Shown: piece by piece, positions 19,582 through 44,638 of the stretch | Position numbering within the stretch: position 1 is the stretch's first letter | Layout: the number at the start of each line of letters is the position of its first letter | Source: an uncultured Candidatus Peribacteria bacterium | GTDB taxonomy: Bacteria; Patescibacteriota; Gracilibacteria; BD1-5; UBA6164 | Direction: 5' to 3' | Assembly: GCA_964415565.1 (NCBI GenBank) | Contig: CAYQAV010000131.1 | Coordinates: forward strand, 291 to 64,290 | DNA: 64,000 bases | Position numbers and translations under genes: made by a program | The notes under the pieces: model-generated | Databases searched by the model: none | What the model saw: only the letters and a program-made list of their open reading frames with translations | What the model was told of the DNA's origin: nothing

Positions 19582-20496
19582 TTATCTTAAATTATCTTCA
19601 TGTACACTATTTGCTGCAAGACAACCTTCTGCAGCACTCATAATAGTTTGTTTAAATTTATTTGAATTTGTAGTTACATCTCAAGCAGCATAAAGTCATT
19701 TTACACTAGTTTCTTGTCTTGCATCAACTACTAAACATCATTCACTATCTTTTTCTAATCATAAATTATCAACAATTGAAGTATTTGGTAGTGTTCCAAC
19801 AGCTACAAATATACCATCTGCTTTTAATTCTTTACCTGATTTTAATTTTATTCAAGTCATACCAAGAGCGTCTCAAACTATCTCTTCAACTTCTTCATTT
19901 AATACCATTTCAATATTTTCTTTACTCATTGCTTTATCTACCCATGAAGTTTCAGCTCTAAAAGTATCTTTTCTATGAACAATATACACTTTTTTACAAA
20001 TATCTGACAAATAAAGAGCTTCAGTTATTGCAGTATTTCATCCTCAAACAATAATAACTTCTCTATTTCTAAAAAACAGTCAATCACAAGTAGCACAATA
20101 ACTTACTCATTTTCATAAAAATTCTTTTTCACCTTTTGCTCAAAGATGTCTATGATTATTTCAAGTTGCGATAATTACATATTTTGATTTAAATTCTTTT
20201 CAAGAAATTGTTTTTATATGGAAATTATCTTTGTGTTTAGTTACTTCACTAACAAATTCGCTTAGTATTTCACTTCCTGAACTTAAAGAGTGTTCTTTGA
20301 AAGAATCCATTATTTCTTTTCCTGGTGCAGAAATAGTTCATGGCCAATTTTCAACTCTATGAGAAGTTGCCAAAGCTCAACCAGGTTGTGCTCAAATAAT
20401 TAAGTTTTTTATCTTATATCTACTAGCATACATTCAAGCAGGGTATCAAGCTGAACCAGCTCAAACTATAATTAAATCATAATCTATATTAGTCAT
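19582..20496 (-). CDS. trxB: thioredoxin-disulfide reductase (304 aa)
   Basis: DLIIVGAGSAGYPAGMYASR, redox centre CATCDG, GGGNTAITEALYL, GLYAAGDV. By hand count, 20 of its 31 Gly codons are TGA. Confidence 0.9.
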
Positions 20497-20718
20497 TTTT
20501 AAATATTAGTTATTATTAATAAAATAATTTATAAAAATTATTTATGAAAGTATTTTAATAAGTTTCTATACTTTGTAAAGTAAATTTTATTATTATGAGA
20601 ATTATTCTCATTTATTAAAATTAATATAGGATTCAGAAATATTTAATTGACTTATATAATATTTTATTTATATTTATATTACTTTTTCAATTTTTTTCCT
20701 AAAAGGAGGAGGTTAATT

Positions 20719-21003
20719 ATGAATAAGCCTATTCCTATGAGTGGAAAAGGATATACTAAAACTAGCCGAAAAATTTGGCTTATGAAATATGAAAGGGATA
20801 CTTTTAATATTGAAGCAGCTTTTGCTAAAAAAGAAAAACAAGAGTTTGATTTTGAAAATAGAGTTGAAATTTCTTTATTAAAACAAAACAATCTATTAAT
20901 TATTCCAACTTGTTTTTGTATAAAAGAGAAAAAAAAGTTTTCCATATTTTACTTTATTATGGGATTAATCTTTTCTTTCTTTAAAATGATTAAGTCATCC
21001 TGA
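20719..21003 (+). CDS. small basic/hydrophobic protein, 94 aa if TGA terminates (106 aa, to 21039, if TGA=Gly)
   Basis: Canonical SD aaggaggagg (20703-20712) 6 nt before ATG 20719. No internal TGA. TTGACT-N16-TATATT promoter-like sequence from 20648. C-terminal hydrophobic helix FSIFYFIMGLIFSFF. TGA 21001 lies in a terminator stem. Confidence 0.45.
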   Translation: MNKPIPMSGKGYTKTSRKIWLMKYERDTFNIEAAFAKKEKQEFDFENRVEISLLKQNNLLIIPTCFCIKEKKKFSIFYFIMGLIFSFFKMIKSS

Positions 21004-21022
21004 TTTTCAGGATGGCTTTTTT
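20994..21022 (+). terminator. intrinsic terminator overlapping the TGA of the small ORF
   Basis: Stem catcctg/caggatg followed by gcttttttc. Confidence 0.65.
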
Positions 21023-21086
21023 CTTTAAGTATTTGATAAAATTAAGAAAAAATATAGAATACAATAAATAAAATTATAAAAAATAT

Positions 21087-22307
21087 ATGAGTAGACAAGT
21101 TTCAAATAGAGAATTAGAACAATTTCAAGAAAATATAGAATATCTAGGTTGAGAACTTAGAGTTTTTTTGGCTGATATTCTTCCAGAAGATATAGAAATA
21201 AGACACAACATGGAGGATAGGATGAGAGAACTTGAAAATCTTGTAAATACATACGGCTGAGTTGTTATCGTTAAGCATATTCAAAATAAAAGTGTTCCAG
21301 ATTACAATACTTTTATTTGAGAATGAAGACTTGATCAAATAATTGAAGAAATGCAAAGAGAGGAAGCAAATATTTTGATCTTATGAAATATTTTAAAGCC
21401 AAAACAAATCTATGCTATAAATGAAAAACTTAAACCAATTTGAGCAAAAGCTTGGGATAGAGTTGATCTTATCTTAAAAATATTTGAAAAAAATGCTAAA
21501 ACTAAAGAATCAAAGATTCAAATAGAATTAGCAGCAATAAAACATATGTGACCTCGTATTTTTGATATGTGAATGGAACTTTGAAAACAAGCTTGAAAAG
21601 GTAGTTGAGAGTCAAATACTGAAATAATGAAAAGACATCTTCAAAGAAGAGTTTTAAATATAAAAGAAGAACTTTCTCATTTTGAAAAAGTTAGAGCTCA
21701 ACATAGACAATCAAGAGATAGGAAATGAATTAAAACAGTTTGAGTTGTTGGTTATACAAATGCCTGAAAATCAACACTTACAAATAGTTTAACAAATAAA
21801 TGAGTATTGGCAGAAGATAAGCTTTTTGCTACACTTTGAACAAGTGTTTGAAAAATGTTTGTTGAAGCAAGTTATGATGAAAAAACATTTCAATATATTG
21901 CTCCAAAAGAGATTCTTATAAATGATACAATTTGATTTATAAGGGAACTTCCACCTCAATTAATAGAAGCATTTAAATCTACTCTTGAAGATTCAATAGA
22001 AGCAGATTTACTCTTACATGTTATAGATTGCTCTGATCCAAAACTTGAAAATAAAATAAAAGTAGTAGAAGAAATACTTGAAACAATAAAAGCAAATCAA
22101 AAAAGAATCTATGTTTTTAATAAGATAGATTTCTTATGAAATGATGAATTTATAGTAGAAGAAAACTGAGAAAAAATAGTTTATAAAACTAAAAAAGAAT
22201 ATTTAAAAGAAAAATACTCTAATTTATGTCCTATATTTATTTCTGCATCAAATAAGGAAAATTTAGAAGAATTAAAAACAAAAATAATAAATGAATTAAA
22301 TTTTTAA
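21087..22307 (+). CDS. hflX: GTPase HflX (406 aa)
   Basis: HflX N-domain ([14 protein letters not shown]), G1 GYTNAGKSTL (the G of AGKS is TGA 21765), G3 NDTIGFI, G4 FNKID. Confidence 0.9.
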
Positions 22308-43748: not shown

Positions 43749-44504
43749 TCAAAATCTGAGATGCAATCTATCTTTTAATTTCAGATAGAATGACGCAAAT
43801 GTGAAGATAGCACTAATCACAAGTAATATTCCACCAATATAGTCAAGATATAAATCAAACCTGTTAAGGCTGACTACATATATGGTAATTACTTTAAATA
43901 CTGTTTTTGTTTTTCCGACCCAATTTGCTGCAGGGTTGCTAGTTTTTGATCTCATGAATTGACCAGCGATGTCTACCATTGAGATAAATATCGCAGTAAA
44001 TACAAAAAAGTTATTATTAGCAAACAAGCAAACTATTGCAAGGATTATTAAGTCCAAGAATTTGTCTGCAAATGGGTCTAATACTTTTCCCAAGTTTGTT
44101 ACATTATTCAAGCTCCTTGCAACTGCACCATCAAGTGCATCGGTTACGAATAAAAACACATAGAATTGCAATAAAATTGAGCTAATTACAGTTTCTTTGT
44201 AAAAGATTACTGTAATTATTGCCAATGGTATAGAGAGATAAACTCTCCACATGCAAATTCCATTTCCGGATAGGAGAGGTGCATCAATATAAAGTTTAAA
44301 CCTTTCAATTGTATTTACAGGTTCTATTTCATACTTATGAATAGCAAAACACTCTCTTATTTTTCTATATCGAAGTCCTCTGTAAACAATCCAAAGAATA
44401 ACGATAACAACTATCAAACTACTCAAAAATTCCATTTGTAAAATTTGATTTTCAGCAAAAGAATTTTTTAGCAGTAGAAACTCTAATGCATAATTATCAA
44501 ACAT
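43749..44504 (-). CDS. CDP-alcohol phosphatidyltransferase family membrane protein (251 aa as a standard-code ORF)
   Basis: DALDGAVARSLNNVTNLGKVLDPFADKFLD = D-G-x2-A-R-x8-G-x3-D-x3-D signature. SD GGAGG 7 nt before the ATG. No internal TGA. The apparent stop is TGA (43749-43751). Under code 25 it would extend 31 codons to TAA at 43656-43658. Confidence 0.85.
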   Translation of the reverse strand: MFDNYALEFLLLKNSFAENQILQMEFLSSLIVVIVILWIVYRGLRYRKIRECFAIHKYEIEPVNTIERFKLYIDAPLLSGNGICMWRVYLSIPLAIITVIFYKETVISSILLQFYVFLFVTDALDGAVARSLNNVTNLGKVLDPFADKFLDLIILAIVCLFANNNFFVFTAIFISMVDIAGQFMRSKTSNPAANWVGKTKTVFKVITIYVVSLNRFDLYLDYIGGILLVISAIFTFASFYLKLKDRLHLRF

Positions 44505-44638
44505 GACACTTCCTCCAAAAGCAAAAATTTGATGTTATTTATTTTAGATTAATATTATAAATAGTCAAGAATAAAATTTGTTTTGATTTAATATTTATTT
44601 TAAATATTATAAAACTAATTAATTAATAAAAAAAATAG

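Follow-up and report, generated by a model that had tools for sequence, protein, structure and literature searches.

The stretch of DNA analysed here, a window of 64,000 nucleotides (bases 291-64290 of contig C131), comes from a 1.33-Mb Gracilibacteria metagenome-assembled genome (MAG) of 142 contigs. Between trxB and hflX it has a spacer of 590 bp (20497-21086), and within this spacer lies a small open reading frame (ORF) of 94 codons that is followed by a TGA. The host genome reads TGA as glycine (genetic code 25): in trxB and hflX, the sequences GAGSAGYPAG and GGGNTAITEA and the GTPase motifs appear under translation table 25 only, and on the native contigs TGA makes up 76% of all glycine codons, corresponding to 47.8 per 1000 codons. 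Genome-wide statistics were run on 112 native contigs, with approximately 30 foreign standard-code contigs excluded. An original prediction for this locus had been made from the letters of the window, and all of its features are present in the sequence; the promoter-like site has the predicted sequence and starts at 20647 rather than at 20648. The parts of the locus are as follows.

19582-20496, minus strand: trxB, a native gene with 20 in-frame TGA codons read as glycine; the divergent upstream neighbour in most lineages
20595-20611, no strand assigned: 17-bp palindrome ATGAGAATTATTCTCAT, i.e., ATGAGAAT-T-ATTCTCAT; a 7-1-7 candidate operator of the Fur family (PerR-like)
20647-20674, plus strand: promoter-like TTGACT-N16-TATATT (sigma-70-type, 10/12 matches), the candidate for the small ORF
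20703-20712, plus strand: Shine-Dalgarno (SD) sequence AAGGAGGAGG, with a 6-nt spacer to the ATG at 20719
20719-21000, plus strand: coding core of 94 codons, with a basic N-terminus and a predicted transmembrane (TM) helix at the C-terminus
20992-21028, plus strand: intrinsic terminator, consisting of a hairpin (20992-21018; core CATCCTGA/TCAGGATG, loop TTT) and a T-run
21001-21003, plus strand: terminal TGA, the triplet that completes the 5' arm of the terminator stem
21004-21039, plus strand: table-25 tail FSGWLFSLSIG after Gly95, to the TAA at 21037-21039; not conserved as protein
21033-21060, plus strand: hflX promoter-like TTGATA-N16-TAGAAT, with the table-25 stop TAA inside its -35 box
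21087-22307, plus strand: hflX, a native gene with 20 in-frame TGA codons read as glycine and a GC content at third codon positions (GC3) of 0.09-0.125 in all genomes

Judged by its signals, the small ORF is a self-contained transcription unit with a promoter-like site of its own and a GC-rich intrinsic terminator. Upstream of the ORF, and similarly spaced from it, every orthologous locus has a TTGAC(T/A) hexamer and a -10-like region rich in A/T, and the SD sequence is conserved in all orthologues of the small ORF, as AAGGAG, GAGGAG, AGGGAG or AAGGAGA. Terminator-like sites number 3 in 3 kb, compared to 0.3 expected. Most orthologous loci keep the TTGATA of the hflX promoter-like site. For non-coding RNA, Rfam gave nothing above threshold in 20300-21300, a result that does not specifically rule out an antisense RNA, and the spacer contains no tRNA or transfer-messenger RNA (tmRNA) genes.

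A conserved small gene upstream of hflX

Comparison across genomes shows that 20719-21000 is a real protein-coding gene. It is located directly upstream of hflX in all of the at least 11 sequences examined, which represent two genera. Full-length orthologues without internal stops, at 33-88% identity, are present in 5 of 6 same-genus genomes, and further orthologues were found in metagenome contigs. The genome from the second genus (G010) has a shorter version of 62 amino acids (aa) at the same position, and orthologue lengths range from 62 to 98 aa. The downstream neighbour is always hflX, while the upstream neighbour is either trxB or the gene for a type II secretion system E (T2SSE) ATPase. 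Within the clade of locus L004, codon positions 1, 2 and 3 have 3, 4 and 13 differences, respectively, so that third positions dominate. A profile search of 1.84 billion representative proteins gave only six relatives, and the four whose DNA was inspected occupy the same locus, upstream of hflX. The body of the small ORF is a divergence hot spot, with 38-60% nucleotide identity compared to 82-99% for the trxB and hflX flanks in the same genomes.

The peptide has no family match in Pfam, PHROGs, PADLOC or NCBIfam, nor in a Foldseek search against the PDB, and a word search of 5.8 billion proteins returned nothing beyond same-family relatives. The AlphaFold (AF2) model has a predicted local distance difference test score (pLDDT) of 69 overall and of 85-91 over residues 11-40, and predicts an extended basic segment (residues 1-13), a helix (14-58), a variable disordered linker (58-71) and a C-terminal TM helix (76-92, FSIFYFIMGLIFSFF). 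The conserved core consists of the basic N-terminal helix with the motif P-x-x-G-K-G...K-T-x-R-K-I-W-x-x-K-Y-x-R-D. The hydrophobic helix is missing from the G010 orthologue, limiting the C-terminal membrane anchor to the genus of the present genome.

The initial guess of a small toxin or holin-like peptide finds no backing: Pfam, PHROG, PADLOC (0 families) and NCBIfam give no matches, no lysis or antitoxin genes are nearby, and G010 lacks the helix. Like holins and small membrane toxins, the product is small and has one predicted hydrophobic helix; unlike them, it has no endolysin, antitoxin or prophage context, its neighbours are trxB and hflX with the hflX linkage kept across two genera, and the conserved part is the basic N-terminal helix instead of the TM helix. 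Like tail-anchored membrane proteins, the product has a single predicted TM helix no more than approximately 20 residues from the C-terminus, no signal peptide, and an N-terminal domain predicted to be cytoplasmic. It differs from them in that the helix is missing in G010, and in that the table-25 reading would put a hydrophobic tail after the anchor. As a guess, the protein could work alongside the translation or HflX machinery while tethered to the membrane.

The 94 codons contain no TGA, for which the chance is approximately 0.011; glycines 9, 11 and 82 are all GGA, and 9 TGAs are present out of frame. In approximately 11 orthologous sequences, more than 25 glycine codons are all GGN, with shifts among GGA, GGG, GGT and GGC, and none is TGA. 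The 5 lineage-specific glycine codons alone give a probability of 0.24^5 = 8e-4. Homologues with internal TGA codons, which would have spoken against the predicted standard-code style, were looked for and none was found among the small-ORF orthologues.

At the position of the TGA at 21001, the orthologues carry any of the three standard stop codons. The aligned terminal codon is TGA in five lineages (G000/G004; the G005/G002 clade; G006, which has TGA TGA; L038; and L039), TAG in two (G003/L041/L045 and G010) and TAA in one (L043); these lineages are not independent, and the hflX branches are too short to give the direction of the changes. On the hflX tree, which is shallow, alleles ending in TGA are mixed with alleles ending in TAG, a hint of allele exchange or of diversifying selection.

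The terminal codon is also tied to the terminator. The TGA at 21001-21003 closes the 5' arm of the hairpin at 20992-21018, with the T-run behind it, in agreement with the original prediction. All 8 lineages that were folded give a stable hairpin (-13.5 to -23.3 kcal/mol) with the terminal codon at the top of the stem or in the loop, and the stems show compensatory changes (CATCC/GGATG, CTTCC/GGAAG, CGTCC/GGACG and ACCTCC/GGAGGT). The hairpins were folded one sequence at a time, the 3' arms being out of register in the MAFFT alignment.

Read with table 25, the small ORF runs through the hairpin to the TAA at 21037-21039, which makes 106 aa and places the stop 12 codons past the TGA. The C-terminus is ...FFKMIKSS if UGA stops, and ...MIKSSGFSGWLF... 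if UGA is glycine and the tail follows. Even close relatives have table-25 tails that do not agree in reading frame or length (GFSGWLFSLSIG, GFFRKLLFFNYG, GFFQEAFIFLTIG, GGKSGRVFL, or none). What is conserved in the underlying DNA is the terminator and the hflX -35 box. The conserved protein thus ends at ...SS, with the remainder evolving as non-coding DNA. Taken together, the alignments show that the TGA at 21001 is the stop position of the small ORF and that evolution treats TGA here as a stop. The predicted standard-code style is borne out by the SD sequence, the absence of in-frame TGA, the TGA at the stop position with TAG or TAA in orthologues, and the dedicated terminator.

A class of genes in standard-code style

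On shared traits, the small ORF belongs to a class of at least 4 unrelated families in this genome. The genes of the class are SD-led, lack in-frame TGA, have a higher GC3, are followed by their own terminator, and have a terminal codon that can be TGA, TAA or TAG depending on the orthologue. Besides the small ORF, the families are represented by the following genes.

43749-44504, minus strand: CDP-alcohol phosphatidyltransferase (PF01066), with the SD sequence GGAGG at 44512-44516 and a TGA at 43749-43751 that is followed by a GC-rich terminator
C101:4727-5077: 101-aa family, examined in 7 genomes; terminal TGA in 4, TAG in 1 and TAA in 2; GC-rich terminator
C94:2000-2941: 289-aa family, examined in 4 genomes; terminal TGA in all 4; GC-rich terminator

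The SD sequence sets these genes apart from the rest of the genome. An SD-like motif is absent at 95.4% of 1200 gene starts, equal to the share at internal ATGs, and only six native genes of at least 70 aa have an SD-like leader. The earlier claim that the small ORF and the gene at 43749-44504 are the only two SD-led genes in the window agrees with a genome-wide scan as far as this contig is concerned. The 3' end of 16S rRNA, ...CUAUCUCCUU, is complementary to AAGGAGGAGG; UCUCCUU is kept and can pair with AAGGAG. The 16S rRNA 3' end (C31, about 255) is GGACUAUCUCCUU, with GAUCACCUCCUU as the canonical form. In the C94 family, 4 of 4 genomes have a conserved SD-led ATG (GGAGGcaagATGtggaccaatgga) that precedes the ATG of the long ORF by 17 nt and is in another frame. 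Either a second ORF overlaps the long one from upstream, or the start of the long ORF may have been assigned wrongly.

In 8 genomes from two genera, each orthologue of the transferase has 9-12 glycine codons, all of them GGN, and the SD sequence is conserved. The terminal codon is TGA in G000, G004, G005 and G002, and TAA in G003, G001, G006 and G010; between G005 (TGA) and G003 (TAA), only 31 of 247 codons differ. Approximately 10 of 15 close cluster representatives have TGA plus an unrelated tail, and the tails of G000 and G004 are the same terminator DNA in different reading frames. The C-terminus is ...KDRLHLRF if UGA stops, and ...RFGKKEKPHACVGF... if UGA is glycine and a tail follows. 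Since this is the only CDP-alcohol phosphatidyltransferase of the genome, its TGA-ending allele must work. All named relatives are from Gracilibacteria or Patescibacteria. Several transferase orthologues have a GGAGG motif 5 nt past the terminal codon.

To judge whether the absence of TGA is unusual, the native neighbours trxB and hflX serve as controls. In the same genomes, GGN/TGA switching is seen at 16 of 51 (31%) conserved glycine columns of these two genes, and only 6 of 22 columns with any GGN stay free of TGA, while the class families never switch from GGN to TGA despite heavy synonymous turnover. For the approximately 9 TGA-free columns of the transferase, the resulting probability is approximately 8e-6; the two columns of the small ORF alone give only 0.07. 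Avoidance is specific to the reading frame, with 0 in-frame compared to 4-17 out-of-frame TGAs per class gene. TGA-ending lineages remain under purifying selection (57 synonymous compared to 28 non-synonymous codon differences). Every orthologue in the class has an elevated GC3 (0.13-0.42, compared to 0.09-0.125 for hflX); for the small ORF it is 0.17-0.37 in 10 orthologues, compared to 0.09-0.125 in the adjacent hflX.

The way in which class genes end is equally distinctive. In a census of 165 native genes with a 3' terminator, made with gene calls from a simple ORF caller, the true stop lies before the hairpin in 85 and inside it in 74 (159 in total). Only 6 of the 165 frames run through the hairpin, and an in-frame TGA at the hairpin is found only in the small ORF and in the gene at 43749-44504. 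A TGA ending with run-through occurs in 0 of approximately 159 ordinary genes and in approximately 4 of 9 class genes (Fisher p = 4e-6). In three of the families the TGA is located 10-25 nt before the hairpin, and in the small ORF inside it. Tails in the class are 9-82 codons long, with a median of 19 compared to a chance median of 9.

As the tails are no shorter than chance, they give no indication of backup stops selected to lie shortly after the TGA. Three simple causes of the TGA avoidance were considered and rejected. Positional avoidance of TGA near gene starts is contradicted by a TGA share of glycine codons of 0.53-0.69 in all positional bins, and avoidance of TGA as an RNA motif (e.g., a nuclease site) by the common out-of-frame TGAs in class genes. 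High expression as the cause conflicts with codon usage and GC3. Highly expressed native genes do avoid TGA, which is used in 0/12 glycine codons of L7/L12, 0/9 of S8, 10/41 of EF-Tu and 17/56 of EF-G, as well as in 0/74 of an S-layer-like gene (C103:23684-26992), suggesting that UGA decoding carries a cost. However, these genes lack an SD sequence and combine a low GC3 with codon-usage scores at the top of the range. In codon usage the four class families rank at the 64th, 5th, 29th and 1st percentiles, unlike highly expressed genes.

Further TGA-free genes on native contigs end in TAA or TAG and probably belong to the same class; several look like membrane proteins. They include a 384-aa permease-like gene (C68:2129-3283, minus strand; TGA in 0 of 27 glycine codons, GC3 0.34), two genes on the minus strand of C58 (C58:1768-2316 and C58:2621; TGA-free, GC3 0.17-0.20), and the SD-led, TGA-free C58:80-487 and C121:5152-5469, with a GC3 of only approximately 0.15. 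The foreign contigs of the MAG are a separate matter. These approximately 30 small contigs, 155 kb in total and including C40, C122, C87, C102, C113, C109, C92 and C106, are either of high GC content (45-65%) or have approximately 30% GC and SD-led, TGA-free standard-code genes, and they skew genome-wide statistics unless removed.

The palindrome upstream of trxB

The original prediction had noted the 17-bp palindrome upstream. Its distribution indicates that it is not part of the small-ORF unit. When at most 1 mismatch is allowed, the native contigs have just 4 copies of TGAGAAT-N-ATTCTCA. All are intergenic, and the genes that they precede are those for a FUR-family regulator (C129:6220-6564), for trxA, for an AhpC/TSA peroxiredoxin and for trxB (identities confirmed with Pfam); a copy with 2 mismatches is located upstream of an Fe/Mn superoxide dismutase gene. 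The sites elsewhere in the genome are at C129:6145, C107:3119, C134:12145 and C15:6653. No copy was found in the 130-150 nt that were inspected ahead of the ORF at four loci (L015, L017, L038 and L043), and at L038 and L043 the upstream neighbour is the T2SSE ATPase gene, not trxB. Judging from these positions, the box belongs to the divergent trxB and not to the small ORF. It looks like the mark of a putative PerR-type oxidative-stress regulon, in which the FUR-family gene is apparently self-regulated.

What UGA means at the end of class genes

The decoding factors of the genome fit fully with code 25 of Gracilibacteria and SR1, including loss of release factor 2 (RF2), as described in PMC6851277 and works cited there. 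A tRNA-Gly(UCA) is encoded and reads the approximately 16,000 TGA codons of the genome. PCRF and RF-1 domains occur in one protein only, a release factor 1 (RF1) that carries the P-x-T motif (RIPETES). The genome is 94% complete, and neither RF2 nor ArfB nor a second GGQ protein was found in it; all known Gracilibacteria genomes lack prfB (PMC6851277). The genome also encodes ClpP and a tmRNA, the latter at C120:34406-34849 by Rfam (73.7 bits; not called by ARAGORN). What departs from the code 25 pattern (PMC6851277) is a small chromosomal gene class that never uses TGA for glycine and has TGA where its relatives stop.

On balance, we favour the reading that the class is conserved in standard-code style and that its TGA is probably still read as glycine, which would add an unselected tail. 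With tRNA-Gly(UCA) and RF1 in place and neither RF2 nor ArfB found, the ribosome would most likely insert glycine at the TGA at 21001 and continue into the short tail. By entering the hairpin close behind RNA polymerase, it would prevent hairpin formation; with transcription thus continuing, the ribosome would reach the TAA at 21037 and release a product of 106 aa. Transcripts that had been terminated, and thus have no stop codon, would be passed to tmRNA and ClpP. Several observations count against this. If TGA is simply glycine, its exclusion from the interior of class genes is left unexplained, given that their codon usage is not that of high expression. Terminal TGA is commoner than TAA or TAG despite a strong AT mutation bias. 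Passing terminated, stop-less transcripts to tmRNA and ClpP would destroy products that are under purifying selection, and nothing in the length of the tails points to backup stops under selection.

Among published cases, the nearest is that of phages compatible with code 11 whose predicted hosts are Gracilibacteria and Absconditabacteria (Liu et al. 2023, mBio, PMC10746230); these phages likewise have no in-frame TGA in a setting where TGA is glycine, and a terminal TGA with a later stop. In contrast to those phages, the genes described here are chromosomal, form four scattered families that keep their positions, and have no viral homologues that we could find; the next stop after a class TGA is no closer than chance. 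The same paper does not report SD use, a higher GC3, or alternation of TGA with TAA or TAG among orthologues. Our literature search found no paper reporting such chromosomal genes.

Context-dependent stop codons occur in the ciliates Condylostoma and Parduczia and in Blastocrithidia, where one codon is mostly sense and marks the gene end elsewhere. These organisms keep a release factor for the codon, and nearness to the 3' end of the mRNA tips the balance. The present case differs in that no UGA-reading factor was found to be encoded and in that the split is by gene class and not by position alone; moreover, what is known here is evolutionary behaviour only, read from sequences.

We see a limited chance that glycine insertion is not the whole story, and that either UGA ends translation in class genes or the class is kept readable in the standard code for occasions when UGA is not glycine. 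The former of these two, in which UGA truly ends translation of class mRNAs, the product has exactly 94 aa and the meaning of UGA depends on context, is unlikely when taken by itself. It would account for the behaviour of TGA in four families, where it is never internal and where terminal TGA, TAA and TAG replace one another, even in near-identical relatives. It would also fit the non-coding evolution of the sequence past the TGA and the fact that ordinary genes never end in this way. As a possible route, UGA would be decoded slowly where it stands at the base of a stable hairpin close to the 3' end of the mRNA, and ribosome splitting, peptidyl-tRNA hydrolysis or the action of an unrecognised factor would follow. 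Set against this are the missing RF2, ArfB and second GGQ protein and a tRNA that reads UGA throughout the genome; in addition, no fixed base follows the TGA (it is T, A or G), and three families have the TGA 10-25 nt ahead of the hairpin instead of inside it. Maintenance of the class for translation when UGA is not glycine, either during a code switch by which a phage shuts off the host (through an RF2 of its own or the loss of tRNA-Gly(UCA)) or in a standard-code partner cell, is quite improbable in our view. A single cause would then cover the SD sequence, the TGA-free frames, the non-native GC3 and TGA as stop, and most phages predicted to infect Gracilibacteria are TGA-free with TGA as stop (PMC10746230). 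There is, however, no evidence for a switch or a transfer route, the genes are scattered over the chromosome at conserved positions, searches turned up no viral homologues, and the sole CDP-alcohol phosphatidyltransferase must function in ordinary cells.

We give little credence to the idea that the small ORF is an ordinary, highly expressed native gene whose SD sequence and lack of TGA come from its level of expression, and whose terminal TGA just happens to be a glycine codon. Highly expressed native genes do avoid TGA, but as described above they do so without SD sequences, with a low GC3 and with optimal codons, and the idea leaves both the TGA/TAA/TAG alternation and the confinement of this ending to the class unexplained. 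Recent import from a standard-code bacterium, plasmid or phage, with a composition that has not yet drifted, would fit the foreign-looking signals and composition and the low identity of the ORF body relative to its flanks. It is nevertheless very unlikely, and the earlier view of the locus as an inserted cassette finds no support: the gene occupies the same locus upstream of hflX in two genera, it has only six relatives among the 1.84 billion representative proteins, it shows no GGN/TGA switching compared to 31% of columns in its native neighbours, and neither a donor nor a phage homologue was found. Searches of IMG/VR and INPHARED yielded no viral homologues, although the sensitivity of such searches is limited for a short, fast-evolving protein. 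Finally, the ORF might be a leader whose translation controls an attenuator, with stopping or run-through of the ribosome at the hairpin setting read-through into hflX; the leader-controlled hflXr of Listeria would be an analogue. The ORF is invariably beside hflX while its upstream neighbour varies, and its terminal codon is inside the terminator hairpin. Still, we find this reading barely credible, given that hflX has its own conserved promoter-like site, that the ORF is long (62-98 aa) and has a conserved protein motif, that a stop inside the terminator hairpin is seen in 74 of 165 native genes, and that the other three families are not beside hflX.

There is a practical consequence for annotation, as table 25 adds spurious tails to these genes; the NCBI entry of the G004 orthologue, for example, carries GFSGWLFSLSIG. 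In the usual picture, reassignment is complete once RF2 has been lost and a tRNA reads UGA, whereas the four families described here behave in evolution as if UGA were a stop, and they keep ribosome-binding sites that the rest of the genome has abandoned. If UGA does terminate translation in these genes, this would be a context-dependent genetic code in a bacterium, with two meanings of one codon and no RF2. If it does not, some selective force would keep a set of genes code-neutral, and identifying that force would be informative on how these uncultured episymbionts interact with their phages or hosts.

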